From positions 1-64,000 of the forward strand of contig JASTWF010000328.1 of the NCBI GenBank assembly GCA_030390025.1: 64,000 nucleotides of DNA. The letters are read 5' to 3'. Below, piece by piece: positions 3,798 to 62,464 of this stretch (position 1 is the stretch's first letter; each line of letters starts with the position of its first letter). Both the position numbers and the translations under genes were made by a program. A model generated the notes under the pieces. That model saw only the letters and a list, made by a program, of their open reading frames with translations, ran no database searches and was not told the origin of the DNA. Source of the DNA: Squalus acanthias (lineage: Eukaryota).

Positions 3798-5548
3798 TGA
3801 TGACCTGTCTGCAGTGAAGCGCCTGTTTGAGTTTCTAACTGAGGCGAACTTCTCTTTCCCAGGAGGAGAGACGAGAGAAACTGGGGCACTTCTCATTAGA
3901 ACAAAGCAGGGTGAGAGGAGATGTGAGCGAGGTGTTTAAACTTGATCAACGACACCGACCAAAATATCAGAGACACTCCCTGTCCTTCAGGACCTGTGTC
4001 CAGGGGAGAAGCTGATGGGTTTATCAGATCATCTTTGGGTTAAATGTTGTGCTCGTGGAGCTGAGCCCCTAGTGTCAGCATCAAACACTCTCCAGTCGGG
4101 TACAGCACGGGTTAGATACAGAGTAAACCCATCAGCCGCTCCCCGACACAGATACCGAGGGACAGGGAGTGTCCGGACAATGACATTTCTCATTCAATAA
4201 GGTATAAATTGATCCTGTACCTCTCCCCATTAATCCTGGGCTCCACACGGGGCGAATCCTGCTCCTGTTTCCCTTCCTGTAACAGCACTGAGCTAAACCC
4301 AGCCCATAATGAGCAGGGCTCAGGGAGGTTGGTTGCTAGGTGCTGCAGTGATGTCATAAAGCAGGGCCATTCAGCCCAGCTGGTCGTCTCCTTGTCCCTT
4401 TAAAGGTGGAGAGCCGGGACACCCTGTCTCCAAACACATCCCACCTGTTCATACTGAGAATCCCCGGGGAAGGCCCAAGGCCCAGAGTGTGGAACACAAC
4501 CAAGGGGGAAAGAGGAGGAGAGAAGGGGAGGTAAATCAAGGAGGCGGGACTGAGGGACACCAAGCTTCAGTTTTAGAGCCTGTAGACTTCAGGAGGAGAA
4601 GAGTGAGTTCAGTAGTTTTAGGATCCAGGGAGAGAACAAGGAGCAGATGGGGAGACTGGTGTGGATTCCAGCACAGTGAGGATGTAGGGGGAGGGAGATT
4701 GTGTCGGGCCGTGTATTAGGGGTGTAGGAGGGACAAGAGAGGAAAGGTCAGAGGAGCAATTACTGCAGCAGTGCCCATAAATAGTGAGAGAGAGAGAAGG
4801 TGGGGGTTCGAGTGGACCAGGGACAGTCTGTTAAACTCGCTGTTTGCTGTGACCAGTTTTCTTTCGGTTAAAAATGTCCTCCTGTAGCCCAGTGACACAA
4901 ACAGCCCATTAAACTCCACCAATGGCCTTTGGTCTGGTGAGGTCTCCCTTTGTGAAACATCGGCTGTTGTTAAAGCTTTTCATTCTGACACGCTCACACT
5001 GAGAAATGAGCTGCAGAACTGCCGACACCGTCAGCTTTAAGGAGACGTTTCCCTTTGGAGATCGGATTGCCCATTGAGTTTGATTAAACTGATGTTAAAG
5101 TAACAAGGCTGCTTTGCCCCGTGACAATAACAGATTATCGGAATATTTCCCATAGGTTAAAATCCAATATGACAGGGACTCACTGCCCTGGATGGTTGAA
5201 GTGGACCCTGTGATATATAATAGAATTTTCTGTCCTGTCAGACTTGGACATCTTGTAGATCCATCTTATAGAAAGTTGTGGGAAATCAGTTCTCAGATGG
5301 ATTCCACTCAGTTTGTAACAAGTCCTCAATCAGCTCATTTTATTGTCGAGATATCAAGGACTCGACACACTGCGTGTGTGGGAAACAAAGCTCATTTATT
5401 TGACATTGATACAGATTAAACTCCAGCCCAGTTATAGGGGTTACTAACATCAGCTGAAACAAACCCCAATTGTCAGAATAAACATGGTTCAGTCCTGGAT
5501 GTGATTAACAGCAGCAATAACAGCAGAATCCAACCCCTACAGTCACTT

Positions 5549-6661
5549 GTGAACTCACTGGTGTGTCCGCAGGTTGGACGACTGAGTGAATCCCTTCCCA
5601 CACTCGGGGCAGGTGAACGGCCTCTCCCCAGTGTGAATTCGCTGGTGTGTCAGCAGATCCTTTGTGCTTTTAAAGCTCTTCTCACACTCAGAACATTTAA
5701 AAGGTCTCTTATTAGTGTGAACAAGTTGGTGTGTCCGGAAGTTGGATGACTGAGTGAATCTCATCCCACACACAGAGCAGGTGAACGGCCTCTCCCCTGT
5801 GTGAACTCGCTGATGTGTCAACAGGTTGGATGAACGAGTGACTCTCTTCCCACATACGGAGCAAGTGAACGACCTCTCCCCGGGACCGGTGAGCTCGCTG
5901 GTGTGTCAGCAGGTTGGATGAATGAGTGAATCCCTTCCCACATACGGAGCAAGTGAACGACCTCTCCCTGGTGTGAACTCGCTGGTGTTTCAGTAGGTTG
6001 GATGAGTGGGCAAATGTCTTTGCACAGTGAGAGCACCTGAACGGTGTCTCGTCACTGTGAACTCGCTGGTGTGTCAGCAAGTGGTTGGATTCAGAAAATC
6101 CCTTCCCACACAATGAGCAGCTGAATGGCCTCTCCCCAGTGTGAATTTGCTGGTGTTTCAGCAGGTTTGATGATTCTTTGAAAGTCTTCACGCAGTGAGA
6201 GCAACTGAACGGCCTCTCCCCGGTGTGACTGCGTCGATGAGTTTCCAGCTGGGACGGGTAATTGAATCCCTTCCCACAGTCCCCACATTTCCACGGTTTC
6301 TCCGTGGTGCGGGTGTCCTTGTGTCTCTCCAGCTTGGACGATCAGTTGAAGCCTCGTCCACACACAGAACACGTGTATGGTTTCTTCCTGCAGTGAATGA
6401 TGCGACTTTTTTCAGGCTGTGTAACTGGTTAAAGCTCTTTCCACAGTCAGTGCACTGGAACACTCTCACTCGGGTGTGTGTGTCTCAGTGCTTTTCCAGT
6501 CAAACTGATGTCTGAAATCTTTTACCACAGATAAACATTTCTCCTTCCACATTCAAAGGCCGATGATATTCAGGTCCTGATGAATGGAGTGACTCTGTCA
6601 GATCTTGACGTGATGTTTGGTTTGAGTTTGCGGTGTGTAAATGCTGCCCTTCTCACAGCCT
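5549..6661 (-). pseudogene. C2H2 zinc-finger locus A, disrupted (about 9 fingers after the KPWKC start region)
   Basis: HTGERPF-linked fingers split across ORFs 5712-6191 and 5555-5821 (frameshift ~5890). TGA in the last finger. ACG at the family start site. Family acceptor ctccttttacag and family 3' UTR present. Confidence 0.88.
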
Positions 6662-6726
6662 GTAAAAGGAGTTTGCAAAAGTCATCATTGCAAAGCAAGG
6701 ATAGAAAATCGCAACAGACAATTCTA

Positions 6727-6947: not shown

Positions 6948-6948
6948 C

Positions 6949-7530: not shown

Positions 7531-7744
7531 TCGTGAAGTGCTCCGGGCACTTTATTAAACACACACACAGCAGAAGCACATTAATCCGATGGGAGATCAC
7601 TGACACACGAGCAGGCAGCGGTGTGGAGCCTCCTGAGAGTCCGGCCCCTTTACAACCAGTATTTGCAGGAGCTGGGACACAGAAAAAAGTCTAATTAAAA
7701 TTACGGATATATTTGTTCACACAAACCAACCCCCAAAATACTGA

Positions 7745-8012
7745 GTCATTTCTCCTCCATTTACAGACGCTCCCTGACCAGTCACCATTTCTCCTCCATT
7801 TACAGACGCTCCCTGACCAGTCACCATTTCTCCTCTATTTACAGACGCTCCCTGACCAGTCACCAGTTCTCCTCCATTTACAGACGCTCCCTGACCAGTC
7901 ACCATTTCTCCTCCATTGACAGATGCTCCCTGACCAGTCACCATTACTCTTTCATTTGCAGACGCCCCCTGACCAGTCACCATTTCTCCTCCATTTACAG
8001 ACGCTCCCTGAC
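7745..8012. repeat. 39-bp minisatellite, about 7 copies
   Basis: Unit gtcaccatttctcctccatttacagacgctccctgacca. A single copy sits at the paralogous position ~47600. Confidence 0.92.
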
Positions 8013-8110
8013 TCACTTCCTGTCTGTCCCGGAGTTTGGCGCTTTGTTGAGATTCAGGCCAGAGCGAAACGGGAACCCGCGGGTGGAGGCGGATAATGTT
8101 CACTGATCTC

Positions 8111-8511
8111 ATAATGGGGCCTGGGGCCGCACTCGGGGTGTGTGCAGCCCGCGTCCCCCCGGGGTTTATTAACCCGCTCCCTGAGCTCTCTCACCTGATG
8201 TGTCAGCGGCTGCTGCCAAGGTCCGCGCATGCTCAGCTCACCTTCTGTTGTAACAGGTTTAAAGGTCAAGCCCCGCCCCTCTCACACTCCGATTGGTTGG
8301 AGGACCCGCCGCCCCCTCGGTCCTCCAGGCCCGCCCCGCTCTTCCTATTGGTCCGAGCTCCCGTCAATCACCCGGGCAGTGTGAGCTGAGCATGCGCGGA
8401 CCTTGGCAGCAGCCGCTGACACATCAGGTGAGAGAGCTCAGGGAGCGGGTTAATAAACCCCGGGGGGACGCGGGCTGCACACACCCCGAGTGCGGCCCCA
8501 GGCCCCATTAT
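8111..8511. promoter_or_regulatory. Putative bidirectional promoter for ZNF A(-)/B(+): 131-bp perfect inverted repeats around a 139-bp core
   Basis: 8111-8241 is the exact reverse complement of 8381-8511. Core has inverted CCAAT boxes (gattgg, tattgg), GC boxes and gtcaatca. Each arm has an NRF1-like gcatgcgc, an ATG and a cag|gtgaga donor. Confidence 0.8.
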
Positions 8512-8781
8512 TAAAACACTCAACATTATCCGCTTCACAAACACCCGGGGTGGGCCTCAGGCCCCGAACAACAGCCTCCGGGCCGGGCGTTTGCCCCGAG
8601 CGGGGCGGCAGCTGCGGGGCTTTCTCCCGGTGACAGGCCCGGGTTAACGGCCGCCATCTTGACAGGCTCAGGGGGCAGCAGGGCGCATGCGCGGCCCCCT
8701 TGGCCAGGAACCAGGAGGAGAGAATCTTGGCAATTTCTATCCTGGACTCACAGTCATGGCTTTTGGAAACTCCTTTTACAG

Positions 8782-9890
8782 GCTGTGAGAAGGGCAGCAT
8801 TTACACACCGCAAACTCACACCAAACATCACATCAAGATCTGACAGAGTCACTCCATTCATCAGGACCCGAATATCATCGGCCTCTGAATGTGGAAGGAG
8901 AAATGTTTGTCTGTTCTGTCTGTGGGAAAAGATTTCAAACATCAGTGTGACTGGAAAAGCACCGAGACACACACACCCGAGTGAGAGTGTTCCAGTGCAC
9001 TGACTGTGGAAAGAGCCTTAACCAGTTACACAGCCTGAAAAAACATCGCACCGTTCACAGCGGGGAGAAACCGTACACGTGTTCTGTGTGTGGACGAGGC
9101 TTCAACTGATCGTCCAACCTGGAGAGTCACAATGAATCCCGCACCATGGAAAAACCGTGGAAATGTGGGGACTATGGGAAGGGATTCAGTTCCCCATCGA
9201 AGCTGGAAACTCATCGACACAGTCACATTTACCTGCTCCGTGTGTGGGAAGGGATTCACTCATTCATCCAACCTTCTGAGACACCAGCGAGTTCACACTG
9301 GGGAGAGGCCATTCACCTACTCCGTGTGTGGGAAGAGATTCACTCAGAGATCCAGCTTGCTGATCCACCAGCGAGTTCACACTGGGGAGAGGCCGTTCAC
9401 CTGCTTCATGTGTGGGAAGGGATTCACTCGTTCATCTGAGCTTGTGAAACACCAGCACATTCACACACGAGAGAGGCTGTTCACCTGCTCCGTGTGTAAG
9501 AAAGGATTCACTTGTTCATTCGAGCTTTTGAGACATCAACGCATTCACACTGGAGAGAGGCCATTCACCTGCTCCACGTGTGGGAAGGGATTTAATCGAC
9601 CATCCAAACTTCTGACACACCAGTGCATTCACACTGGAGAGAGGCCGTTCACCTGTTCCGTGTGTGGGAAGGGATTCACTAATTCATCTGATGTTCTGAC
9701 AGACCAGCGAGTTCACACTGGGGAGAGACCGTTCACCTGCTCCATGTGTGGGAAGGGATTCACTTGTTCATCCAGCCTGCTGACACACCAGCGAGTTCAC
9801 ACTGGGGAGAGGGCGTTCACCTGCTCCGTGTGTGGGAAGGGATTCACTCAATCATCCCACCTGCTGAGACACCAGCGAGTTCACAAGTGA
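8782..9890 (+). pseudogene. C2H2 zinc-finger locus B, frameshifted (about 9 fingers)
   Basis: Acceptor ttttacag ends at 8781. TGAs at 8786, 8948 and 9107. Kozak ATG at 9146 (MEKPWKC). A 14-nt linker deletion at ~9226 shifts the frame. Ends HQRVHK*. AATAAA at ~10035. Confidence 0.85.
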
Positions 9891-15625: not shown

Positions 15626-16388
15626 GGGTTCAGTTCTACACTCACTGGTTCCCCTCCCTCTCCTCCCCTGAAGGTGCTGACTCTGGCTGGGTTCAGTTCT
15701 ACACTCACTGGTTCCCCTCTCTCTCCTCCCCTGAAGGTGCTGACTCTGGCTGGGTTCAGTTCTACACTCACTGGTTCCCCTCTCTCTCCTCCCCTGAAGG
15801 TGCTGACTCTGGCTGGGTTCAGTTCTACACTCACTGGTTCCCCTCTCTCTCCTCCCCTGAAGGTGCTGACTCTGGCTGGGTTCAGTTCTACACTCACTGG
15901 TTCCCCTCCCTCTCTCCTCCCCTGAAGGTGCTGACTCTGGCTGGGTTCAGTTCTACACTCACTGGTTCCCCTGAAGGTGCTGACTCTGGCTGGGTGCAGT
16001 TCTACACTCACTGGTTCCCCTCCCTCTCTCCTCCTCTGAAGGTGCTGACTCTGGCTGGGTTCAGTTCTACACTCACTGGTTCCTCTCTCTCTCCTCCCCT
16101 GAAGGTGCTGACTCTGGCTGGGTTCAGTTCCACACTCACTGGTTCCCCTCCCTCTCCTCCCCTGAAGGTGCTGACTCTGGCTGGGTTCAGTTCTAGACTC
16201 ACTGGTTCCCCTCCCTCTCCTCCCCTGAAGGTACTGACTCTGGCTGGGTTCAGTTCTACACTCACTGGTTCCCCTCCCTCTCCTCCCCTGAAGGTGCTGA
16301 CTCTGGCTGGGTTCAGTTCTACACTCACTGGTTCCCCTCTCTCTCCTCCTCTGAAGGTGCTGACTCTGGCTGGGTTCTGTTCTACACT
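15626..16388. repeat. 63-bp ZNF-associated minisatellite, about 12 copies
   Basis: Same unit as 6727-6947; period 63 (15731 to 15794). Confidence 0.95.
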
Positions 16389-16391
16389 TGT

Positions 16392-16976
16392 ACAAAAGCA
16401 AAATACTGCGGCAGCTGGAAATCTGAAATAAAACAGAAAATGCTGGAAATACTCAGGACAGCATCTGTGGAGAGAGAAACAGAGTTAACGGTTCAGGTCA
16501 ATGACGTTTCATCAGAACTGTAAAATGTTAGCAATGTAACAGGTTTTAAGATGGACCTCGTGTAGACGAGGGAAGGATGGAAATTGGAAGTAAAGTTGAT
16601 GAAGTTTTCCAGTTCAGGGCGAGAGCAGGAACCGGCACCAATAGTTATCAATGTACCGGAAAAAGAGGTGAGGGAGGGGACCTGACTCGGACTGGAACAA
16701 AGAATGTTCCACATATCCCATGAAAAGGCAGGCATAGCTAGGACACATGCGGGTTCCCATAGCAATGCCTTTATTTGGAGGAAGCGAGTGGAGTCAAAGG
16801 AGAAGTTGTTCAATGTGGGACAAGTTCAGCCAGGTGTAGGAGGCTGGTGGTGGATGGGGACTGGTTGGGCCTCTGTTCAAGGAAGAAGCGGAGCGACCTC
16901 AGGCCGTCCAGGTAGTGGATGGAGGTGTAGAGGGATTGGATGTCCATGGTGAAAAGGAGGAGGAGTGAAAAGGGCC
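16392..16976 (-). mobile_element. Penelope-like element fragment (terminal region and RT piece)
   Basis: Minus strand encodes NNFSFDST-FLQIK and an FFRYID(N) motif typical of PLE RT. Terminal aaaatgctggaaatactcag repeat. Host sequence resumes after the CR1 at ~20957. Confidence 0.7.
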
Positions 16977-19900: not shown

Positions 19901-20956
19901 GGATAATTGTTTTTAGTTTGTAGCTGACAAGTTAAGAAATATAAAGAATTAACCGGTTTAGTCTGAATTGACATAATTGTAATCATGTGATATTTTGTAA
20001 CAATGTGATTGGATAATTCTTAAATAAAAGGTTGTAACTGACAACGGGAGGTTGAGAAGCCGTGGTCACTAGGCCGGGTAAGGTCTATGACGCTTCTCAC
20101 AGAGATCTCTGAACATTAATAAACTGTTTGCTTTTACCTATCAACACAGACTGGAGTGAAATTAATTTCTCCCTAACATCTACCGTACCGATCTCATCCC
20201 TTATTAACAGCGCTACGCCACCTCCTTTTCCTTTTTGTCTGTCCTTCCTAAATGTTGAGTACCCTGGAACATTCAGTTCCCAGCTTTGGTTACCCTGCAA
20301 CCATGTCTCTGTAATGGCAATTACATCATACCCATTTACTTCTATTAGTGCCATTAATTCATCCACCTTGTTGCGAATGCTAAGTGCATTTAGATAAAGT
20401 GCCTTCAACTTTGCCTGTTTAATATTTTTCTGCACTTTGACCCTCTTTACTGTTGGCCTTTGTTTCTGCTCCCTACTAGTTTTGCTGACTACTTTTCTAA
20501 CTTGCACTTCCAGCTTTGTTTCTCTCCATTCTGGGCCCACACTTTGGTTCCCAGCCCCCTGACAAACTAGCTTAAATCCTTCCCAACAGCACTAGCAAAC
20601 CCCCCTGCGAGGATGTTGGTCCAGTTTCTGCCAAGGTGTAACCCGTCCAGCTTGTACAGGTCCCACCTTCCCCAGAGTGGTCCCAATGCCTCAGGAATTT
20701 AAATCCCTCCCTCCTACACCATCTCTCCAGCCACGCATTCAGCTGGTCTATTCTCCTATTTCTGCTCTCGCTAGCACGTGGCACTGGGAGTAATCCTGAG
20801 ATTACTACCTTTGAGGTCCTGCTTTTTAATTTATTTCCTAGCTCCCTATATTCTGCTTGCAGGACCTCGTCCCTCTTTCTACCTATGTCGTTGGTACCGA
20901 TATGGACCACGACCTCGGGCTGTTCACCCTCCCCCTTCAGAATGTCCTGCAGCTGC
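16977..20956 (-). mobile_element. 5'-truncated CR1 LINE (ORF1 esterase remnant and ORF2) with 19-bp TSD
   Basis: ORF1 piece VHIGTND...VVISGLLP (20572-20910). ORF2 pieces including a 502-aa RT ORF (17044-18552). aggaggagtgaaaagggcc at 16958-16976 and 20957-20975. Confidence 0.92.
19639..20178 (+). mobile_element. Solo LTR, 540 bp, inserted in CR1 endonuclease coding sequence
   Basis: Starts TG and ends CA. 5-bp TSD tctac (19634-19638 and 20179-20183). AT-rich TATA-like tract at ~20021 and aataaa at ~20119. CR1 coding resumes on both sides. Confidence 0.85.
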
Positions 20957-21034
20957 AGGAGGAGTGAAAAGGGCCCAGAAACTGGTAACTGTTAAAGTGG
21001 CGGAGGGCGCTTACACCCTGGTCCACTTTTCAAT

Positions 21035-22290
21035 CATCTCCAACACAGGAGTTCCTCAGGGCAGTGTCCTATTCCCAGCCATCTTCAGCTGCTTTATCAA
21101 TGGCCTTCCCACCACGAAAGGGTCAGAAGTGGGGAAGTTCGCTGATGATTGCACATTTTTCAGTTCCATTTGCAGCTCCACAGATAATGAAGCAGTTCGT
21201 GCCTGCCTGCCGCAAGACCTGGACGACGTTCAGGTTTGGGCTGATAAGTGGCAAGAAATATTCGCGCTACACAAGTGCCAGACAATGACCATCTCCAACA
21301 AGAGAGTCTAACCACCACCCCTTGACATTCAATGGCATTACCATCACCGAAACCCCCATCATCAACATCCTTGAAACTTATAAAATTCTGACAGGACAGG
21401 ACAAACTAGATGCAGGAAGGATGTTCCCGATGGTCGGGGAGTCCAGAACCAGGGGTCACAGTCTAAGGATAAGGGGTAAGCCATTTAGGACAGAAATGAG
21501 GAGGAAGTTCTTCACCCAGAGAGTGGTGAACCTGTGGAATTCTCTGCCACAGAAGGCAGTAGAGGCCAATTCATTAAATAGATTCAAGAAGGAGTTGGAT
21601 ATATTTCTTAAGGCTAAAGGGATCAAGGGATATGGGGAGAAAGCAGGGACAGGGTACTGAATTTGGATGATCAGCCATGATCGCATTGAATGGCGGAGCA
21701 GGCTAGAGGGGCCGAATGGCCTACTCCTGCTCCTATCTTCTATCTATGATTCTATGGAGGTCACCATTGACCGGAAACTTAACTGGACCAGCTACATAAA
21801 TATTGTGGCTACAAGAGCAGGTCAGAGGCTGGGTATCCTGTGGCGAGGGTCTCACCTCCTGACTCCCCAAAGCCTTTCTAGGCACAAGTCAGAAGTGTGA
21901 TGGAATTATCTCCACTTGCCTGGATGAGTGCAGCTCCAACAACATACAAGAGGCTTGACACCATCCAGGACAAAGCAGCCCGTTTGATTGGCACCCCATC
22001 CACCACCTTAAACATTCACTCCCTCCACCATCGGCGTACCGTGGCTGCAGTGTGTACCATCTACCAGATGCACTGCAGCACCTCCCAAACCCGCGACCTC
22101 TTCCACCTAGAAGGACAAAGGCAGTAGGCACATGGGAACACCACCAGCTGCAAGCTCCCCTCCAAGTCACACACCATCCTGACTTGGAAATAGACCGCCA
22201 TTCCTTCATAGTTGCTGGGTCAAAATCCTAGGGATGGGCAATAAACGCTGGCCTTTCGAGCGAAGCCCACATCCCGTGAACGAACAATAA
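21035..22290 (+). mobile_element. CR1-clade LINE 3' part (different subfamily), interrupted by a CR1 3' fragment at 21371-21755
   Basis: GVPQGSVL...FSCFIN...FADD motif. The inserted piece encodes ETYKIL...GIKGYG and ends in a tctatgattctat tail. Confidence 0.8.
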
Positions 22291-22424
22291 AAAAAAACAA
22301 CCCCTCCCCTTCCCACAACACCTTTCCATGCAAGCACAGCAGATCCAACACATTGGCTGTAAAGCGCTTGGGCACCTCCGGTGCTCTTGAAAGGCGCTAT
22401 ATAAATGCAAGTCTTTCTTCTTTT

Positions 22425-22517
22425 CTCTCTCCATAGACGCTGCCTGACCTGCTGAGTATTTCCAGCATTTTCTGCTTTTATTTCAGATTTCCAGCATGCG
22501 CTGTATTTTGCTTTTGT
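22425..22517 (+). mobile_element. Penelope-like terminal fragment, preceded by a SINE/L2 tail at 22350-22420
   Basis: Reverse complement of the terminal repeat seen at 16392, 45404 and 50680. Confidence 0.6.
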
Positions 22518-22537
22518 GTTGAGATGTTGAAACACCC

Positions 22538-23240
22538 GCTGTGTGCAGAGTGAGAATAAAATCAATGAGTCGATTTTCTCCCCTGGTCACTGGGACCCTG
22601 AAGCCCCGCCCACTCATTGTTCCTTTACAAAGATGGCCGCACATACGCTCCGCTGCACTATGAATCAAAATGGCGGCGCACTAAACCTTCCAGCTTTCCT
22701 TTGCAAACATGGCGGCAATTAACTGGGGCCTGTTACCGGGGAAAAAGCCCCGGATCTGCAAACGCGGAACCTGCAGGTTCTTATTCGGGGCTTGCGGCCT
22801 ACACCAGGTGCTTATGAAGCCCACCTGCCAGACCCATTACTCTCCTGCGACCATCGCCTCTCACCTGCTGCAAAACTGTGTCTGCGACCTCTGCCCACTT
22901 CCAGCTCTCACCCAAGTCTGATCGAAGTCACACTGCGCATGCTCCTAATACCGTCCCGCACCGCGCCTGCGCACTGGTCTCCTGCAGTGTGAATAGGGAC
23001 TGGAGAAACTCGCTGCCCCGCGGATCAGACAATCAGCCGGCGCTAGTCCCGCCCCTCGGGCTCCCCGATTGGTTGGAGGACCCGCCGCCGGCTCGCTCCT
23101 CCAGCCCCGCCCCGCTCGCTCTCTATTGGTCGGAAGCTCCCGTCAATCAGGCCGTGGGCCCGGGTCACGTGTCCCCGATGAGATCACGTGCTCCGTCCAA
23201 CTGACTCCGCTCGGTCCGGGGCCTCGCGGACTCTGAGGTT
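22538..23240. promoter_or_regulatory. CpG-rich putative bidirectional promoter for ZNF C(-)/D(+)
   Basis: YY1-like aagatggcc/aaaatggcgg/aacatggcgg, NRF1-like tgcgcatgc, two inverted CCAAT boxes, GC boxes, cggaag, gtcaatca, E-box gtcacgtg. 22538-22650 is the reverse complement of gene J 5' region 53970-54088. Confidence 0.7.
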
Positions 23241-33110: not shown

Positions 33111-33980
33111 CCTTTGTAGGTCTTTTTGTTGCTTCAGTTTGAGCTGGAGTGGAGATGGAGGAGAAGCTTCTGGGTTTAACCCCCAGTACTTCTGAGCCCA
33201 GGAGGACCCAACAATTTCCAATGTGAGACTGTCAAGGGAGGTGGATTCTGGGGGAGATTAGGTTGTTAAACAGACACTGTCCCTACAATGTAAAAGAGTA
33301 TTGTTTTAGGAACAAGTATTTCTCTAGAGGCTTTTAATCTATTTTACACATACAGATTTTTTTCATTCATTCTTGGGATCTGGGCGTCACGGGCAAGGCC
33401 AGCATATGTTGCCAATCGCCAGTTTCCCGTTGAGAAGGTGATGGTGGGCCTTCGTCATGAACCACTGCAGTCCGTGTGGTGAAGGTACTGACTTAGAGGG
33501 GAACTGGCAGGTGGTGATGTTCCCATACACCTGCTGCCCTCGTCCTTCTAGGTGGTGGAGTTCGCGGGTTTTGGAGGTTCTGTCAAAGTTCAGGTCGAGT
33601 TGCAGATGTATAAAGTCCCTTTCTTTTGACCCTTCCACGCGTCCCGCCCCCCCCCCCCCACGACAACCTCTCTCTCTCCTCCCATAGAGGCTAGAGTCAT
33701 GTGTAGGCCCAGACTGTGTGGCGGATTCCCTTCTCTGAAGGACATTAGTGAACCAGTTGGGTTTTTATGGCAATCCAGCAGCTTTCATGGTCACTTTTTT
33801 CTAATGACCAGATTCATTGAGCTCAATTTCACAACCTGCCTTTGTTTTTTTGTGGGTTCTCTCTCATGCTCCCTTTTTCCTGTTTTAAATTCATTTTACA
33901 GGATATTAGAAGAGGAGGATTAGCAGACGGGAAGCTCAAACCAAACATCGCATCAAGACCTGACGAAGTCACTCGATTCA

Positions 33981-34483
33981 CGGAGAGTGAGGAGACTCAG
34001 ATCAAACTGTCAGGACGGAGTGAGGAGACTCAGTTCAAACTGCCACAGGACGGAGAGTGAGGAGACTCAGAACAAACTGCCACAGGACGGAGAGTGAGGA
34101 GACTCAGAACAAACTGCCACAGGACGGAGAGTGAGGAGACTCAGAACAAACTGCCACAGGACGGAGAGTGAGGAGACTCAGTTCAAACTGCCACAGGACG
34201 GAGAGTGAGGAGACTCAGATCAAACTGCCACAGGACGGAGAGTGAGGAGACTCAGAACAAACTGCCACAGGACGGAGAGTGAGGAGACTCAGTTCAAACT
34301 GCCACAGGACGGAGTGAGGAGACTCAGTTCAAACTGCCACAGGACGGAGAGTGAAGAGACTCAGAACAAACTGCCACAGGACAGAGTGAGGAGACTCAGA
34401 ACAAACTGTCAGGATGGAGTGAGGAGACTCAGATCAAACTGCCACAGGACGGAGAGTGAAGAGACTCATATCAAACTGTCACA
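33981..34483 (+). repeat. 37-bp tandem monomers at the CR1 5' end, about 13-14 copies
   Basis: Unit ggagagtgaggagactcagaacaaactgccacaggac. Confidence 0.93.
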
Positions 34484-34550
34484 GAAGTGTATTGTTTTAA
34501 TTTAAATTAATTAAAGGGTAAATAATAATAAATTTAATTAATTACATAGA

Positions 34551-35507
34551 ATGGGAGAGCAGGTGATGTGTTACTGCTGCAATATGTGGGAGCTGGAGGA
34601 CACCATTGATGTTCACGATGATCACATTTGCAGTAAGTGTTGGCTGCTCGAGGAACTCCGGCTCCGTGTTGATGAGCTGGAGTCCGAGCTTCAAACACTG
34701 CGACACATCAGGGAGGGGGAGAGTTACCTGGACTCTGTGTTCCAGGAGGTAGTCACACCAATTAGATTAACTAATTCAGATGTAGCCCATGATCAGGGAC
34801 AGGAGGGTGTGACTACGAGTGAGGCAGGTACGGGGATCCAGGAGGTAGTGTTGGAGGAGCCGCAGCCCTTGCTCTTGTCCAACAGGTTCGAGGCTCTTAC
34901 TCCCTGTGAGGATGGGAGCAGGGACTGCAGGGAGGATGAGCAACCTGGCCACAGCACTGTGGTACGGGGAGCCATTCAAATGGGGGGAGTAAAAAGAAAT
35001 GTTGTAGTGGTAGGGGATAGTATCATTAAGGGGATAGATAGGGTTCTTTGCAGCCGAGAGCGAGAGTCCCGAAGGCTATGTTGCCTGCCCGGTGCCAGGG
35101 TTAAGGACATCTCCTCTGGGCTGGAGAGAAACTTGGAGTGGGAGGGGGAAGATCCAGTTGTCGTGGTCCATGTTGGTACCAATGACATAGATAGGACAAG
35201 GAATGAGGTTCTGCTGAGGGAGTATGAGCAGCTAGGGGCCAAATTAAAAAAAAGAACCTCTAGGGTAGTAATCTCTGGATTACTACCTGAGCCACGAGCA
35301 AATTTGGCTAGGGTAAATAAAATCAGAGGGTTAAATGCGTGGCTCAAAGACTGGTGTGGGAGAAATGGGTTTTGCTACCTGGGACACTGGCACCAGTACT
35401 GGGACAGGAGAGAGCTGTTCCGTTGGGACGGACTTCACTTGGCCAGTGCTGGGACTAGAGTCCTGGCGAATCGAATAACTAGGGCTGTAGAGAGGGCTTT
35501 AAACTAA
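34551..35507 (+). CDS. CR1 ORF1p (N-terminal Cys/His motif, coiled coil, SGNH esterase)
   Basis: CxxC...HxCxxC, a leucine heptad, and VVVGDS, CLPGA, HVGTND and DGLHL esterase blocks; 318 aa. Confidence 0.92.
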   Translation: MGEQVMCYCCNMWELEDTIDVHDDHICSKCWLLEELRLRVDELESELQTLRHIREGESYLDSVFQEVVTPIRLTNSDVAHDQGQEGVTTSEAGTGIQEVVLEEPQPLLLSNRFEALTPCEDGSRDCREDEQPGHSTVVRGAIQMGGVKRNVVVVGDSIIKGIDRVLCSRERESRRLCCLPGARVKDISSGLERNLEWEGEDPVVVVHVGTNDIDRTRNEVLLREYEQLGAKLKKRTSRVVISGLLPEPRANLARVNKIRGLNAWLKDWCGRNGFCYLGHWHQYWDRRELFRWDGLHLASAGTRVLANRITRAVERALN

Positions 35508-35545
35508 TTAGTGGGGGGGAGGTTTCAAGAGAGCAAAAAATAAAA

Positions 35546-38497
35546 ATGTCAGCGGAGAAGGCAATAGAGCAAAGTAGCAGTGGGGTAATTAAAAACCAGA
35601 GCGTGTCAGGAAGGGACAGAATATATAAAGATAAAGGTAAAGTAGTAAAGGGGGTAAAAGCAGGAAAAAATTGTCACAAAACATATTTAAAAGTTCTTTA
35701 TCTGAATGCACGCAGCATTCGTAACAAAATAGACGAATTGACGGTACAAATAACTACGTATGGGTATGATCTTGTGGCCATTACAGAAACATGGCTGCAG
35801 GGTGACAACGACTGGGAATTAAATATGCCAGGGTATTTAACAATCAGGAAGGACAGACAGGAAGGAAGAGGGGGTGGGGTAGCTATGTTAATAAAGGAAG
35901 GAATCACTGTATTACAGAGAAATGATATTGGGTCAAAGGATCAGGATAATGAAACAGTTTGGGTGGAGATAAGGAATAATAAAGGGAAAAAAACACTAGT
36001 GGGAGTAGTATATAGGCCTCCTAATAGTTGCAACTCTGCTGGAAGAAGTATTAATCAGGAAATAGTTGGGGCATGTAATAAGGGAACAGCTATAATTATA
36101 GGGGATTTTAACTATCATATTAACTGGACAAATCAAATTGGGCAGGGCAGCCTTGAGGAAGAGTTTATTGAGTGTATTAGGGATGGATTTCTTGAGCAGT
36201 ATGTAACTGATCCTACAAGGGGGCAAGCAACCTTGGACCTGGTCCTGTGTAATGAGTCAGGATTAATTAATAATGTCCTAGTTAAGGATCCCCTTGGAAT
36301 GAGTGACCATAACATGGTTGAATTCCATATCCAATTAGAGGGTGAGAAGGTTGGTTCTCAGACAAGCGTACTGAGCTTGAATAAAGGAGACTATGATGGT
36401 ATGAGAGCGGAATTGATTAAAGTGGACTGGGAAAATAGATTAAAGGGTAAGACGGTACATGAGCAGTGGTGTTCATTTAAGGAGTTATTTTACAACTTTC
36501 AAAAAAAATATATTCCACTGAGGAAAAAAGGGTGTAAAAGAAATGACAGCCATCCGTGGCTAAGTAAAGAAATTAAGGATAGTATCCAACTAAAAACAAG
36601 GACATATAAGGTAGCCAAACTTAGTGGGAGGATAGAAGATTGGGAAGTCTTCAAAAGACAGCAAAAAGTAACTAAAGGATTGATTAAGAAAGGTAAGATA
36701 GATTATGAAAATAAATTAGCAAAAAATATAAAAACAGATAGCAAGAGTTTCTATAGTTATATAAAAAGAAAAAGGGTGGCTAAGGCAAACGTAGGTCCCT
36801 TAGAGGATGAGACCGGGAAATTAATGGTGGGAAACATGGAGATGGCAAAAATGCTGAACAAATATTTTGTTTCAGTCTTTACGGTAGAGGACACTAAGAA
36901 TATCCCAACACTGGACAAACAGGGGGCTCTAGGGGGGGAGGAGCTAAATACGATTAAAATCACTAAGGAATTGGTACTCAGTAAAATAATAGGACTCAAG
37001 GCGGATAAATCCCCTGGACCTGATGGCTTACATCCTAGGGTCTTGAGGGAAGTGGCAATAGGGATTGTGGATGCTTTGGTAATAATTTTCCAAAATTCCC
37101 TGGAATCAGCAAAGGTCCCGGCAGATTGGAAAACTGCTAATGTAACACCCTTATTTAAAAAGGGTAGTAGGCAGAAAGCTGGAAATTATAGACCAGTTAG
37201 TCTAACATCTGTGGTGGGTAAAATTTTGGAGTCTATTATTAAGGAGACAGTAACGGAACATTTAGATAAACATAATTTGATAGGACAAAGTCAGCATGGC
37301 TTTATGAAGGGGAAATCATGTCTGACAAATTTGCTTGAGTTCTTTGAGGACATAACGTACAGGGTGGATAAAGGGGAACCAATGGACGTAGTGTATTTAG
37401 ACTTCCAGAAGGCATTCGACAAGGTGCCACATAAAAGATTATTGCTCAAGATAAAAAATCACTGGATTGGGGGTAATATTCTGGCATGGGTGGAGGATTG
37501 GTTATCTAACAGGAAGCAGAGAGTTGGGATAAATGGTTCATTCTCGGACTGGCAACCAGTAGCCAGTGGTGTTCCGCAGGGGTCGGTGCTGGGTCCCCAA
37601 CTCTTTACAATCTATATTAACGATTTGGAGGAGGGGACCGAGTGTAACATATCAAAGTTTGCAGATGATACAAAGATGGGAGGGAAAGTAGAAAGTGAGG
37701 AGGACATAAAAAACCTACAAGGGGATATAGACAAGCTGGGTGAGTGGGCAGAGATTTGGCAGATGCAATACAATATTGGAAAATGTGAGGTTATGCACTT
37801 TGGCAGGAAAAATCAGAGAGCAAGTTATTATCTTAATGGCGAGAAACTGGAAAGTACTGCAGTACAAAGGGATCTGGGGGTCCTAGTGCAAGAAAATCAA
37901 AAAGTTAGTATACAGGTGCAGCAGGTGATCAAGAAGGCCAACGGAATGTTGGCTTTTATTGCTAGGGGGATAGATTATAAAAACAGGGAGGTATTGCTGC
38001 AGTTATATAAGGTATTGGTGAGACCGCATCTGGAATACTGCATACAGTTTTGGTGTCCATACTTAAGAAAAGACATACTTGCTCTCGAGGCAGTACAAAG
38101 AAGGTTCACTCAGTTAATCCCCGGGATGAGGGGGTGGACATATGAGGAGAGGTTGAGTAGATTGGGACTCTACTCATTGGAGTTCAGAAGAATGAGAGGC
38201 GATCTTATTGAAACATATAAGATTGTGAAGGGGCTTGATCGGGTGGATGCGGTAAGGATGTTCCCAAGGATGGGTGAAACTAGAACTAGGGGGCATAATC
38301 TTAGAATAAGGGGCTGCTCTTTCAAAACTGAGATGAGGAGAAACTTCTTCACTCAGAGGGTAGTAGGTCTGTGGAATTTGCTGCCCCAGGAAGCTGTGGA
38401 AGCTACATCATTAAATAAATTTAAAACAGAAATAGACAGTTTCCTAGAAGTAAAGGGAATTAGGGGTTACGGGGAGCGGGCAGGAAATTGGACATGA
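35546..38497 (+). CDS. CR1 ORF2p (APE endonuclease and reverse transcriptase)
   Basis: 983-aa uninterrupted ORF with [42 protein letters not shown] and FADD. Confidence 0.96.
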   Translation: MSAEKAIEQSSSGVIKNQSVSGRDRIYKDKGKVVKGVKAGKNCHKTYLKVLYLNARSIRNKIDELTVQITTYGYDLVAITETWLQGDNDWELNMPGYLTIRKDRQEGRGGGVAMLIKEGITVLQRNDIGSKDQDNETVWVEIRNNKGKKTLVGVVYRPPNSCNSAGRSINQEIVGACNKGTAIIIGDFNYHINWTNQIGQGSLEEEFIECIRDGFLEQYVTDPTRGQATLDLVLCNESGLINNVLVKDPLGMSDHNMVEFHIQLEGEKVGSQTSVLSLNKGDYDGMRAELIKVDWENRLKGKTVHEQWCSFKELFYNFQKKYIPLRKKGCKRNDSHPWLSKEIKDSIQLKTRTYKVAKLSGRIEDWEVFKRQQKVTKGLIKKGKIDYENKLAKNIKTDSKSFYSYIKRKRVAKANVGPLEDETGKLMVGNMEMAKMLNKYFVSVFTVEDTKNIPTLDKQGALGGEELNTIKITKELVLSKIIGLKADKSPGPDGLHPRVLREVAIGIVDALVIIFQNSLESAKVPADWKTANVTPLFKKGSRQKAGNYRPVSLTSVVGKILESIIKETVTEHLDKHNLIGQSQHGFMKGKSCLTNLLEFFEDITYRVDKGEPMDVVYLDFQKAFDKVPHKRLLLKIKNHWIGGNILAWVEDWLSNRKQRVGINGSFSDWQPVASGVPQGSVLGPQLFTIYINDLEEGTECNISKFADDTKMGGKVESEEDIKNLQGDIDKLGEWAEIWQMQYNIGKCEVMHFGRKNQRASYYLNGEKLESTAVQRDLGVLVQENQKVSIQVQQVIKKANGMLAFIARGIDYKNREVLLQLYKVLVRPHLEYCIQFWCPYLRKDILALEAVQRRFTQLIPGMRGWTYEERLSRLGLYSLEFRRMRGDLIETYKIVKGLDRVDAVRMFPRMGETRTRGHNLRIRGCSFKTEMRRNFFTQRVVGLWNLLPQEAVEATSLNKFKTEIDSFLEVKGIRGYGERAGNWT

Positions 38498-46144: not shown

Positions 46145-46903
46145 TCACTTGTGAACTCGCTGGTGTTTCAGCAGGTTAGATGACTGAGTGAATCCCTTCC
46201 CACACACTGAGCAGGGAAATGGCCTCTCCCCAGTGTGAATATGCCGGTGTGTCAGAAGGTGGGATGAACGAGTGAATCCCTTCCCACACGTGGAGCAGGT
46301 GAACGGTCTCTCCCCAGTGTGAGTGCGTTGGTGTTTCAGCAGATCCCTTCTGCTTTTAAAGCTCTGCTCACAGTCAGCACAATTAAATGGTCTCTTATCA
46401 GTGTGAACAAGGTGATGTACAGCGAGGGTAGATGACTGAGAGAATCCCTTCCCACACACGGAGCAGGTGAACGGCCTCTCCCCAGTGTGAGTGCGTTGGT
46501 GTTGCATCAGATGCCATCTACTTTTAAAGCTCTTCTCACAGTCAGAACATTTAAACGATCTCTTATTAGAGTGAACAAGTTGGTGTGCAGTGAGGCTGGA
46601 GGAGTTAGTGAATCCCTTCCCACACAGGGAGCAGGTCAATGGCCTCTCCCCAGTGTGAATACGCTGGTGTGTCAGAAGGTGGGATAATTTAGTGAATCCC
46701 TTCCCACACACAGAGCAGGTGAATGGTCTCTCCCCAGTGTGACTGTGTCGATGAGTTTCCAGCTCAGATGGGTAATTGAATCCCTTTCCACACACGGAGC
46801 AGGTGAACGGCCTCTCCCCTGTGTGACTGTGTCGATGAGTTTCCAGCTTGGACGGGTAATTGAATCCCTTCCCACAGTCCCCACATTTCCATGGCTTCTC
46901 CAT
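46145..46903 (-). CDS. C2H2 zinc-finger protein G (9 fingers, 252 aa, MEKPWKC start)
   Basis: Intact ORF from gcaccATGg to HQRVHK*. Confidence 0.85.
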
Positions 46904-47258
46904 GGTGCAGGTGACCTTATGTATGTCCAGGTTGGACAATCCGTTGAAGCCTCGTCCACACACAACACGTATACGGTTTCTCCCCACTGTGAATGGTGCG
47001 ATGTTACTCCAGGCTGTGTAACTGGTTAAAGCTCTTTCCACAGTCAGCGCTCTGGAACACTCTCACTCGGGTGTGTGTGTGTCTCGGTGCTTTTCCAGTC
47101 ACACTGATGTTTGAAATCTTTTCCCACAGACAGAACAGACAAAAATTTCTCCTTCCACATTCAAATGCCGATGATATTCAGGTCCTGATGAATTGAGTGA
47201 CTCTGTCAGATCTTGATGTGATGTTTGGTTTGAGTTTCCCGTCTCTAAATCCTCCCCT

Positions 47259-47462
47259 TCAGTTCCACATTCACTGGTTCCCCTCCCTCTCCTCCCCTGA
47301 AGGTGCTGACTCTGGCTGGGTTCAGTTCTACACTCACTGGTTCCCCTCCCTCTCCTCCCCTGAAGGTGCTGACTCTGGCTGGGTTCAGTTCTACACTCAC
47401 TGGTTCCCCTCCCTCCCCTCCCCTGAAGGTGCTGACTCTGGCTGGGTTCAGTTCTGCACTCA
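47259..47462. repeat. 63-bp ZNF-associated minisatellite, about 3 copies
   Basis: Same unit as at 6.7 kb and 15.6 kb. Confidence 0.9.
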
Positions 47463-47717
47463 TCAGTTGCTGTCCAGTGTGTGACCTGTGTGCCCCATCT
47501 ATGTGTGAACTCTCTGGGAATTTGACCGAATGTGCAGTCCCTCTGGGGACCGGACCCCCGGCCCGAATCGTTCACACAAACCAACTCCCCAAAATTAGAG
47601 TCATTTCTCCTCCATTTACAGACGCTTCCTCTCTGTCCCGGAGTTTGGCGCGGGGCCCCTTTGCTGAGCGAATCGGGAGAAACCGGGAAGCGGCGGGAGG
47701 ATAATGTGGAGTGTTTT

Positions 47718-48041
47718 AATAATGGGGCCTGGGGCCGCACTCGGGGTGTGTGCAGCCCGCGTCCCCCCGGGGTTTATTAACCCGCTCTCTGAGCTCTCTC
47801 ACCTGATGTGTCAGCGGCTGCTGCCAAGGTCCGTGCATGCTCAGCTCTCACTGCCCGGGTGATTGACGGGAGCTCCGGACCAATAGGAAGAGCGGGGCGG
47901 GGCTGGAGGACCGAGCGGGCGGCGGGTCCTCCAATCAATCGGAGTGTGTGAGGGGTGGGGCTTGACCTTTAAACCTGAACAACAGAAGGTGAGCTGAGCA
48001 TGCGCGGACCTTGGCAGCAGCCGCTGACACATCAGGTGAGA
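47718..48041. promoter_or_regulatory. Second inverted-repeat bidirectional promoter cassette, ZNF G(-)/H(+)
   Basis: Same arms as 8111-8511, with the right arm truncated at ~48041. The core is in reverse orientation relative to the flanks. Confidence 0.78.
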
Positions 48042-48392
48042 AAAAACATCGCACCATTCACAGCGGGGAGAAACCGTGCACGTGTTCTGTGTGTGGACGA
48101 GGCTTCAACTGATCGTCCAACCTGGAGAAACACAAGGACACCCGCACCATGGAGAAACCGTGGAAATGTGGGGACTGTGGGAAGGGATCCACTTAGCCGA
48201 CCCAGCTGCAAAATCATTGGCGCAGTCACACTGTTCACCTGCTCCGAGTGTGGGAAGGGATTCACTCACTCATCCAACCTGTTGACACACCGGCGAGTTC
48301 ACACTGGGGAGAGGCCGTGCACCTGCCAAGTGCGTCAGAAGGGATTCGCTCGGTCATCCCACCTGCTGAGACACCAGCGAGTTCACAAGTGA
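48000..48392 (+). pseudogene. Truncated zinc-finger locus H
   Basis: The promoter arm is fused by deletion to finger sequence at ~48041. TGA at 48110. 11-nt linker deletion at ~48234. Ends HQRVHK*. Confidence 0.75.
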
Positions 48393-48722
48393 CTGCAGGT
48401 GTTGTAGTCTGCTACTTTTCCTGCTGTTAATCACATCCAGGACTGAACCATGTTTATTCTGACAGTTGGGGTTTGTTTCTGTTGATGTTAACCTGTGCAG
48501 CTGATGTAACATGTGCAGCAGCTGAAGCCTTGAAATCAGCTTCACTGCCCCTGGGCTGGGAAAGAGGAACATGAGACAGCATTCTCCCTCTTACCTCTTT
48601 CTAAACTCATTTTACAGGATTTTAGAAGTGGAGCATTTACAGACAGGAAGCTCAGACCAAACATCACATCAAGATCTGAATCGCTCGATTCATCCGGACC
48701 TGAATATCATCGGCCTTTGCAC

Positions 48723-49940
48723 ATGGAAGGAGAAAGCAGCTATCGTAGCGATGACAATCCGCACACGTGTTCGGTGTGTGGACGCGGATTCAGCCGATCG
48801 CCTGACCTGGCGAGACACGTGCACCATCACACCGGGGAGAATCTGAGTCAAGGTGTGGATGGCGGGAAGGGCTTTAGTTCCCCGTCTGCGTTGGAAGTTC
48901 ATCGGCACAGTCACACCGGGGACAGTCCATTCACTTGCTCCGTGTGTGGGAAGGGATTCACCCTGTCATCCACCCTGCTGAGACACCAGCTTGTTCACAC
49001 TGATGAGAGACCGTGTAAATGCTCTAACTGTGGGAAGAGCTTTAAATGTTCCGGGCATCTGAAGGGACACCAGCGAGTTCACACTGATGAGAGACCATTT
49101 ACGTGTTCTGACTGTGGGAAGAGCTTTAAAAGCTATCGGGATCTGACGACGCACCAGCGTGCTCAGACTGGGGAGAGGCTGTTCACCTGCTCCGTGTGTG
49201 GGAAGGGATTCACTGGTTCATCCACCCTGCTGAGACACCAGCTTGCTCACACTGATGAAAGACCATTTAAATGTTCCCACTGTGGGATGAGCTTTAAAAG
49301 CCCCGGGGAGCTGAAGGGACACCAGCGAGCTCACACTGGGGAGAGGCCGTTCACCTGCTCCGTGTGTGGGAAGGGATTCACTCGGTCAACCAACCTGCTG
49401 AGACACCAGCACCTCCACACTGGTGAGAGGCCGTTCACCTGCTCCGAATGTGGGAAGGGATTCACTGATTCATCCACTCTGCTGTCACACCAGCTTGTTC
49501 ACACTGATGAGAGACTCTTGAAATGTTCTGACTGTGGGAAGAGCTTTAAACGCTTCCGGGAGCTGAAGCGACACCGGCTCCTCCACACTGGAGAGAGGCC
49601 GTTCACCTGCTCTGTGTGTGGGAAGGGATTCGCTCGGTCCTCCAACCTGCTGGCGCATCAGCAAGTTCACACTCACGAGAGACCCTTTAAATGTTCTGAC
49701 TGTGGGAAAGGCTTTAAAAGCTCCCGGCAGCTGAAGGGACACCAACGATTTCACACTGGAGAGTGGCCATTCACCTGCTCCATGTGTGGGAAGGGATTCA
49801 CTCATTCATCCACCCTCCTGTCACACCAGCGAGTTCACACTGACGAGAGACCCTTTAAATGTTCTGACTGTGGGAAGAGCTTTAAAAGCTCTAAGAGCCT
49901 TAAGAGACACCAGCGTGTTCACACTGATCATAGAATCTAA
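48723..49940 (+). CDS. C2H2 zinc-finger protein I, paralog of D (about 12 intact fingers, 405 aa)
   Basis: Uninterrupted ORF from cacATGg. Acceptor at ~48617. N-terminus closely matches D. Confidence 0.86.
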
Positions 49941-53379: not shown

Positions 53380-54090
53380 ATTTTGTTCCACAGAAGCACG
53401 AGGTTTATCTGTTTTTATTCATGAATTTAAAAAGTCTGTATTAAAACCTGAGCCAGTGTGTTGTGAGACAAAGAGCCTTGTGTCCAATAAGGGGAATAAA
53501 GGCCCACAGCCTCCCCTGGCCCCGGGCCCTGAACAAGGGACTGGAGAAACTCGCTGCCCCGCGGATCAGACAATCAGCCGGCGCTAGTCCCGCCCCTCGG
53601 GCTCCCCGATTGGTTGGAGGACCCGCCGCCGGCTCGCTCCTCCAGCCCCGCCCCACTCACTCCCTATTGGTCGGAAGCTCCCGTCAATCAGGCCCGGGTC
53701 ACGTGTCCCTCACCGACTTCACAAAGGAAGTCCCGCGCGGTCGCCGGGCGGAGCAACAGGTCGGCGGGGTCGGGAGATTAATAAACTGCGGGTAGGCCGC
53801 GCCGCAGGTTTTATAAAGTTGGAGAACGGCCTCAGGCCCGAATGAGACCCCGCGGCCCGGTCTGTGTTCCACCGGACGGCAGCTATGAGGCTTTTTCTCG
53901 CTGACAGGCCCGGGTTACGCGCCGCCATCTTGGTGGAGGAAAGAGAGACTGGTCCCACCTGCAGCAGGGCGCATGCGCGGCCATCTTGGTACAGGAACAA
54001 AGAGTGGGCGGGGCTTCAGGGTCCCAGTGACCAGGAGAGACAATCATTGACTCATTGATTTTATTCTCACTCTGCACACAGCGGGTGTGG
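53380..54090 (+). promoter_or_regulatory. Putative promoter and 5' region of ZNF J
   Basis: Cassette with CCAAT, GC and E boxes, YY1-like cgccatctt (twice) and NRF1-like gcgcatgcgc. Confidence 0.68.
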
Positions 54091-54680
54091 AACTGAACCC
54101 AACCAGAGTAGAGGGAGGGAGAAAACTGGGAGTGGAGGAAAGAAATGTTGGAGATGGTGCGATGGGTTTGGATTTCAGCACAGGGAGGAGGGAGAGTGTG
54201 TGGGACGGGGATTTACAGCTTTGGGGGAACAAGAGAGGAAAGAATGTTCCATAGAAACTAGAATTGTCTGTTCTGAATTTCTATCCTGTACTTACAGTGA
54301 TGACTTTTGTAAACTCCTTTTATAGGGTGTGAGAAGGGCAGGATTTACAGATGGGAAACTCAAACCAAACATCACAACAAGATCTGACAGAGTCACTCAA
54401 TTCATCAGGACCTGAATATCATCGGTCTTTGAATGTGGAAGGAGGAATGTTTGTCTGTGGGAAAAGATTTCAAACATCAGTGTGACTGGTAAAGCACCGA
54501 GACACACACACCCGAGTGAGAGTGTTCCAGTGCACTGACTGTGGAAAGAGCTTTAACCAGTTACACAGCCTGAAAAAACATCGCACCGTTCACAGCGGGG
54601 AGAAACCGTACACGTGTACTGTGTGTGGACGAGGCTTCAACTGATCGTTCAACCTGGAGAGACACAAGGACACCCACACC

Positions 54681-61739: not shown

Positions 61740-62200
61740 TCTCTCCTCCTGGTTCCTGGCCAAGGGGGCCGCGCATGCGCCCTGCTGCCCCCTGAGCCTG
61801 TCCAGATGGCGGCCGTTAAACCGGGCCTGTCACCGAGAGAAAGCCCAGCAGCTGCCGCCCCGCTCGGGGCAAACGCCCGGCCCGGAGGCTGTTGTTCGGG
61901 GCCTGAGGCCCACCCCGGGTGTTTGTGAAGCGGATAATGTTGAGTGTTTTAATAATGGGGCCTGGGGCCGCACTCGGGGTGTGTGCAGCCCGCGTCCCCC
62001 CGGAGTTTAATAACCCGCTCCCTGAGCTCTCTCACTGATGTGTCAGCGGCTGCTGCCAAGGTCCGCGCATGCTCAGCTCACACTGCCCGGGTGATTGACG
62101 GGAGCTCCGGACCAATAGAAGAGTGGGGCGGGGCTGGAGGACCGAGCGGGCGGCGGGTCCTCCAACTAATGGCGGTGCAGCAAGGGGGCGGGGCCTGGTG
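61740..62200 (-). promoter_or_regulatory. Putative promoter and first exon of ZNF K (one arm plus partial core)
   Basis: Reverse complement of ~8295-8720. Confidence 0.7.
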
Positions 62201-62464
62201 AGCAGCTCAGGTGCGCTGGGGCCGATTGTGACGCGCTGTCCCCAGGTGAGAGCAGCTCAGTCAGCACAGAGCTGGGGCTGGAATCTGGGAGAGGGGCCAC
62301 AGTCAGCGGGCCTGGCAAAGGGCCAGAGCGACAGCAGCTTCACTAAAGAAGATTATTTAAAGACAAATTCCTGTAGTTTTAGAGACAGCCCTGGTCACTG
62401 CAATAATTTCTTAAATGTTTAATAATTAAATCAAAAGCATCAAAAAGGAAGAGTAGCAAAAGTA

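Follow-up and report, generated by a model that had tools for sequence, protein, structure and literature searches.

Organization of the zinc-finger loci

The window, a 64,000-nt stretch of a Squalus acanthias contig, contains LINE reverse-transcriptase, endonuclease and esterase frames together with tandem C2H2 zinc-finger genes. At two loci, termed A and B, a cassette is located between divergent zinc-finger genes or their remnants. It is composed of a core and two arms that are inverted copies of each other (Table 1). Additional copies, termed C to G, are found elsewhere in the window.

Table 1. Features of the two cassettes and of related copies in the window
Feature	Positions	Strand	Description
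A-minus zinc-finger exon	5545..6659	-	frameshifted; without the Met present in B-minus
A left flank	7715..8085	-	39-nt array (7747-8012) and linker
A left arm	8086..8241	-	
A core	8242..8380	+	
A right arm	8381..8536	+	donor-like GT at 8428
Right flank (RF)	8537..8781	+	YY1-like and NRF1-like motifs, acceptor-like AG at end; 98% shared with C
A-plus zinc-finger exon	8782..9890	+	frameshifted after first finger
Pair E	22532..23149	.	core 23045-23149 (+), RF-like module on reverse side
B-minus C2H2 zinc-finger ORF	46145..46903	-	252 aa, 9 fingers
63-nt minisatellite	47258..47462	.	3.3 copies
Left flank (LF) of B	47570..47651	-	common to A 7715-8042, same orientation
B linker	47652..47698	-	homologous to A 8043-8090, strongly diverged
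B left arm	47699..47849	-	predicted first exon and intron start, reading away from core
B core	47850..47988	-	two CCAAT boxes, GC boxes, TATA-like hexamer
B right arm remnant	47989..48041	+	53/53 identical to A 8381-8433
B-plus zinc-finger exon fragment	48042..48491	+	premature stop, frameshift; with 3' end
ORF J	48723..49940	+	intact zinc-finger ORF, 405 aa, 12 fingers; paralog of 23.6-kb gene
Copy C	61927..62197	-	core (own 5' end) and full forward arm, then RF and broken zinc-finger exon
Candidate C reverse arm	62198..62265	+	diverged, tentative; begins at core end, donor-like site

The A arms are 156 nt long and 96% identical as inverted repeats. Over 131 nt (8111-8241), the left arm matches the right arm perfectly, and five changes cluster at 8101-8110. 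The B arms are 98% identical as inverted repeats over 51 nt (47797-47847 and 47991-48041). The right arm of B ends after 53 nt and runs into the middle of a zinc-finger exon. The equivalent of A 8434-9038 (605 nt) is deleted here, with a 2-nt microhomology at the junction.

The B-minus ORF has lost its usual upstream splice acceptor to the 63-nt array. The same unit is found at 6726-6948 and 15625-16388. Each array is located upstream of a minus-strand zinc-finger exon, and the array marks three minus-strand genes in the window. It adjoins the three exons at three different points. A single segment resembling part of the unit is located in the intron of G (54079-54109) and is a possible seed of the minisatellite.

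On the plus side of B, ORF J has an acceptor-like AG at 48616-48617, and the sequence immediately upstream lacks a promoter module of the type proper to J. The right arm remnant contains a donor-like GT at 48036 and may serve as the first exon of J. No joint from donor 48036 to acceptor 48617 is present among the 15 of 49 contig joints surveyed. A protein search with J returned generic zinc-finger matches, and the top identity among the 120 matches listed is 57% over 88%, to a sawfish protein. Profile searches returned no match in Rfam and none in metagenome scans. The 40-codon frame of the arm has no protein match, and the frame in RF matches one unnamed protein.

Two further points concern reading frames. 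Splicing of 47989-48035 to 48618-49940 would bring an ATG of the arm (48000; 12 codons) into the frame of J. In type-1 zinc-finger exons (9037-9120 and paralogs), common in-frame stops are found upstream of the first Met-led finger.

The core of locus B is reversed relative to locus A

Alignment of the two loci revealed that B 47699-48041 corresponds to A 8189-8531 in reverse complement (332 of 344 columns, 96.5%, E 1.6e-161). Within it, the 139-nt B core is the reverse complement of the A core, apart from 6 substitutions and two columns with gaps. The core limits at B, 47849/47850 and 47988/47989, are the inner ends of the arms. A reverse-complemented core with limits at the inner repeat edges is the pattern of a spacer microinversion. 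The left flank is in the same orientation at both loci. B 47570-47630 matches A 7715-7775 at 92%, and B 47602-47847 matches A 7981-8239 at 82%. The original prediction had proposed aligning the two loci and had described a left flank matching 7715-8042 in the orientation of A. The alignments recovered both this unreversed flank and the reversed core. The core limits given there, 47848-47989, are corrected to 47850-47988; the reversal itself stands, on an alignment that includes the arms.

The outer flanks of B are preserved to different extents. The left one is retained and the right one, where a reciprocal swap would be visible, is deleted, so a single flank fixes the orientation of B directly against A. 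The outer genes match those of pair E. Between A and B, a single substitution in 59 separates the copies of LF proper, and 1 in 63 those of the 63-nt unit. The linker between flank and arm is only about 65% alike (64 of 98 columns, borders included). The 39-nt repeat is present in 6.8 copies in the A left flank and in less than one copy in B. Between the flank and the 63-nt array, A additionally carries a LINE piece and unrelated DNA. We considered whether arm and core are more alike between A and B than the flanks, as after a recent transfer. This idea was dropped because LF proper and the 63-nt unit are equally alike.

The outer arm edge of B (47708-47718) has one difference to the A right arm and six to the A left arm. 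This edge had been described as B-type. It is indeed distinct from the A left arm, yet it is also found in C and in right-flank-type contigs. Because these carry it too, the edge probably represents the ancestral state rather than a scar left by crossover.

The core resembles a bidirectional promoter

The cassette is 62% GC and has a CpG observed/expected ratio of 0.66-0.69 (0.66 for the B arm-core-arm segment), compared to 0.44 in the window. Both CCAAT boxes and both GC boxes of the core are located on one strand. An NRF1-like motif is found at the start of each arm, with one base altered in the B left arm. Each arm contains a donor-like site, which is at 47802-47801 in the B left arm, and acceptor-like sites precede the zinc-finger exons. 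Motif patterns were consensus sequences, and the promoter and exon roles are assigned from these motifs and CpG content.

The core is predicted to be a bidirectional CpG-island promoter in head-to-head C2H2 zinc-finger pairs, and the arms are predicted to be duplicated first exons around it. The locus combines a GC- and CpG-rich core, motifs of the NF-Y, NRF1 and YY1 types and divergent predicted genes. In these respects it is similar to vertebrate bidirectional promoters, with divergent genes, a GC- or CpG-rich core and CCAAT, GC-box, NRF1-like and YY1-like motifs. NRF1, NF-Y, YY1 and GABPA sites are enriched in human head-to-head bidirectional promoters, according to excerpts of one study (PMC3082894). 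Unlike in the vertebrate promoters, the predicted first exons here are near-identical inverted copies, and the unit is amplified in a zinc-finger family.

Since both arms offer the same predicted exon, a flip would not be expected to act as an on/off switch. It would alter only the spacing and polarity of the CCAAT and GC boxes, and would cause a fixed shift in bias at most. A and B are a natural pair for asking whether the orientation of the CCAAT/GC-box core biases two-way transcription. As we read the locus, the duplicated first exons make the shared promoter a palindrome, which could be reversed or reshuffled during expansion of the zinc-finger family.

Related copies and the direction of the change

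The forward core-arm join is predicted to be ancestral, since it is present in C and, for its first ~19 bases, in D. Copy C contains a candidate reverse arm as well. It matches in 49 of 73 columns, a value reached by 9 of 2000 shuffles, and is the best of 2556 tiles in a comparison that left out known arm copies and D. Arm-like traces are also found on the reverse side of E (20 of 2000 shuffles) and the forward side of G (8 of 2000). Arm-likeness was tested in nine regions, with four at or below 20 of 2000 shuffles and five above. This lends modest support to an ancient layout with two arms, of which a diverged reverse arm would have been renewed in the A/B subfamily.

Pair E provides an outgroup for A and B. 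An intron module on the reverse side of core E (22532-22871) recurs at core G, there on the forward side (53753-54088). In addition, 15380-15640 matches G 54354-54086, and 22532-22657 matches G 54088-53960. The 14-16-kb gene is probably the head-to-head partner of E, because the G intron resumes there where the E module stops (G 54086/54088). The intron of this gene (15380-22657) is seemingly stretched by ~6.9 kb, with the 63-nt array, a SINE and LINE pieces.

The position of the 63-nt-array gene relative to the core differs between the pairs. It is observed on the reverse side in A and is placed there in E by the assignment of its partner, and it is on the forward side in B alone. On the opposite side, ORF J and the right-hand gene of E are 97.9% identical over 581 nt. 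J is thus a close paralog of that gene, and B is reversed against the outer genes of E too. With E as outgroup, the comparison suggests that B has the derived, flipped orientation. B is favored as the flipped copy because the array gene is on the forward side only in B, and on the reverse side in both A and E. The E core is of a different subtype (85%), which makes it weaker as an outgroup.

Trees of exon blocks are star-like (0 of 6 and 0 of 5 inner branches starred), and the B-plus fragment was not placed. Of its non-CpG minority sites, one is shared with A-minus, one with A-plus and one with the gene at 39-40 kb.

The promoter modules of D, E, F and G form a patchwork, with a downstream part common to E and F and an upstream part common to F and G. 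The side change of the E/G module is non-reciprocal and took place without near-identical arms. Side-swaps therefore need no inversion.

Depth and variants in contig data

Four contig runs were compared with 47463-48760 at 90% likeness; all 21 runs consist of contigs. In runs X1, X5 and X8, the arm and core bins are ~60- to 4,600-fold deeper than bin 47551-47594, where bin depth is summed contig depth and not copy number. This large excess marks the arm and core modules as highly repeated. At 47708, 47788, 47834, 47848, 47935 and 47956, most of the depth carries the A letter (in the 40 of 64 variant rows compared), so these changes, the first four of them in the left arm, are private to B. The two B arms differ from each other at 47834 and 47848, and B is thus without recent homogenization.

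None of the 32 contig pieces listed (of about 28,000) carries the exact B haplotype, so these pieces give B no independent confirmation. The B letter at 47848 has zero depth in the 55% of run X5 that was read. One X5 contig (record 9) spans the flank, a linker resembling that of B and, at the arm edge, 20 letters, with 7 differences; being short of our 31-letter rule, it serves as a hint only. No strand-changing joint is present among the 15 of 49 joints surveyed, and contigs would be unable to reveal a flip across identical arms.

In a second organism, one contig (run X8, record 30) spans the reverse core-arm join, covering 53 letters to either side of it. In 34 contigs from this organism, the arm edge is followed by RF-type sequence. 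Run X7, guessed to be RNA and possibly DNA, has contigs on arm and core, which have no bearing on expression. Length variants of the arm are found at 47740-47802: contigs in X1 and X5 skip 57 nt, and 24 contigs of X8 have arm-like loose ends before 47740.

Origin of the reversed core

We favor, with moderate confidence, the explanation that the B core was turned once, long ago, by unregulated exchange between its mirror-image arms. In the A/B subfamily, the forward arm would have overwritten an older and diverged reverse arm similar to that of C. The spacer of one cassette would then have been inverted, through either homologous recombination of the arms or a template switch between strands during replication. 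Later, the 605-nt deletion and point changes would have cut the unbroken arm identity at B to 37 nt and locked it. A template switch is plausible because it can equalize arms and invert the spacer in one step, and excerpts of two reports describe both outcomes (PMC5453318, PMC8604942). Its application to a 139-nt spacer would be an extrapolation. A single historical inversion, the fallback offered by the original prediction, fits best.

A substantially less probable explanation involves exchange between paralogs and no inversion in place. LF could have joined the forward arm by gene conversion or ectopic exchange via the shared arm, or A could have gained RF from a C-type copy. In one version, a fold-back ancestor had LF on both sides, of which B lost one by deletion and A swapped one. 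The same picture would result, so the earlier claim that the core has inverted at least once is retained as the likeliest reading with E as outgroup, and not as the only one. The arm is shared by many paralogs, as the high depth of arm and core indicates, and the module patchwork with its E/G side-swap is what such exchange would leave. A-minus contains a G-type intron end and an A-plus-type exon start, and the poorly matching linker is located between parts of A and B that are ~98% alike. These observations are weighed against two others. The partner arm, 139 nt away, would be by far the nearest template for exchange. The array gene on the reverse side of E is explained in fewer steps by one inversion in B.

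Slow, recurrent toggling is unlikely. It would require that long-arm cassettes such as A re-invert occasionally in the germ line and segregate in both orientations, with B as a frozen outcome. The A arms, identical over 131 nt and only 139 nt apart, are suitable for this, and the presence of the core-arm join in a second organism indicates that the layout has had time. Inversions between human and yeast inverted repeats do recur, according to excerpts of two studies, yet the inverted segments are far larger there, 5.6-37.6 kb and 24 kb (PMC3961182, PMC9731477). In addition, only one of the two cassettes with near-identical arms in the window is reversed. The A arms equal the family-majority sequence, so ongoing exchange is not required to account for their identity. 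If both orientations were found at one locus, this would be a recurrent inversion at promoter scale.

The longest perfect arm identity is 37 nt at B and 131 nt at A. In mouse cells, recombination was 20-fold lower when homology was cut from 232 to 134 bp, as an excerpt reports (PMC2583991). The same source, as excerpted, describes exchange through matches below 50 bp as possible when repeats are close, so B is not strictly locked. Both partner exons of A are frameshifted. At B, the minus ORF and the more distant ORF J are intact, and the adjacent plus fragment is dead. Thus the cassette most capable of flipping, A, lacks intact genes to choose between, and the intact partners accompany short arms.

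It is very doubtful that high-copy palindromic cassettes flip their cores often, in germ line or soma, and reshuffle the favored zinc-finger partner through ordinary recombination. If this were true, it would be a vertebrate counterpart of invertible promoters, present at many loci, with A-type long-arm cassettes and further copies with intact partners beyond the window as the candidates. Somatic flipping would be a type of switch for which we found no vertebrate report in the open-access literature.

An assembly artefact, such as a fold-back chimera or a polishing error behind the reversed B or the identical A arms, is highly improbable. The missing B haplotype and the zero depth of its letter at 47848 in X5 are compatible with it. 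However, B and A disagree in 12 of 344 columns, and B has its own linker and deletion junction, unlike a chimera of A, and the core-arm join is bridged in a contig of another organism.

A flip-flop that is programmed, or frequent in somatic cells, and selects one of two zinc-finger partners, as in bacterial invertible promoters, is scarcely credible: its asymmetric promoter-like core between inverted repeats and the intact ORFs on both sides of B are set against the absence of a recombinase in 12 of 78 ORFs and of a RAG-signal-like site at A or B, the pairing of long arms with broken partners and of intact partners with short arms, and the same exon in both arms. The flip-flop switch raised by the original prediction is thus unsupported, as the B arms are short and unhomogenized, the A partners are broken and no recombinase is found in the 12 ORFs.

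Comparison with known inversion systems

In behavior, the cassette is akin to the inversion of a spacer flanked by inverted repeats, and no account of this cassette was found in the open-access literature. Spacer inversions by template switch or break repair have spacers of 2-33 nt and arms mostly below 75 nt, according to excerpts of three reports (PMC5453318, PMC8755829, PMC8604942). As in these human-chimp and yeast cases, the spacer here is reverse-complemented, the limits are at the inner repeat edges and the arms are equalized. The differences are a longer spacer (139 nt), longer arms (131-156 nt) and a comparison of paralogs rather than orthologs.

Recurrent inversions have been described on a larger scale. 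Among human inversions between inverted repeats, 11 of 16 amenable to analysis had signs of recurrence, as excerpted from PMC3961182. In Saccharomyces, a 24-kb flip/flop region on chromosome XIV with 4-kb repeats re-inverts over evolution and was stable in ~53,800 mitoses, in the portion of the report available (PMC9731477). In both systems, as in the shark cassette, the repeats are parts of duplicated genes and the process is unprogrammed; the human AQP12A/B case exchanges first exons, as far as the excerpts describe it. The human and yeast segments are kilobases long and occur in both orientations at one locus, whereas here a promoter-sized core has its two orientations at two loci.

A third comparison is with bacterial promoters. 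Invertible promoters are known from E. coli fimS, Salmonella hin and the Bacteroides capsule promoters. They are served by a dedicated site-specific recombinase, usually encoded nearby. Similar to these, a segment that is promoter-like by motifs and CpG content is located between inverted repeats and is found in two orientations relative to the flank. Unlike these, the shark cassette has long exon-like arms instead of short recombinase sites, has its orientations at two loci and resembles a two-way promoter. A Pfam scan of 12 of the 78 listed ORFs found no recombinase; eight contain LINE or zinc-finger domains and four have no match, and an enzyme could be encoded elsewhere. No RAG-signal-like site is found at A or B with the motif used, which has two loose matches in the window, at 9128 and 11400. 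Searches of the open-access literature returned no eukaryotic invertible promoter among the matches listed, no match for duplicated zinc-finger bidirectional promoters and, for sharks, no account of this cassette.

Transposon origins of the cassette were considered and rejected. For a MITE or fold-back transposon, inspection by eye found no target-site duplication at 8076-8085 and 8537-8546. Arms as transposon ends were rejected because, in A, B and C, the arm sequence is continuous with gene modules.

The change cluster at the left edge of A (8103-8111) pairs at 9 of 10 positions with its own linker at 8048-8057, 50 nt away. This level was reached by 71 of 5000 shuffles, for a pairing that was noticed post hoc. 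A short local template switch at the left-arm edge of A would be a weak lead.

Among the LINE sequences, two inverted pieces at 1687-2939 form an imperfect 1.25-kb palindrome (81%). A CR1-type LINE at 34545-38497 contains an ORF1 with an esterase domain and, uninterrupted over 1003 aa, an endonuclease/reverse-transcriptase frame, and is preceded by a 37-nt array at 33980-34484.
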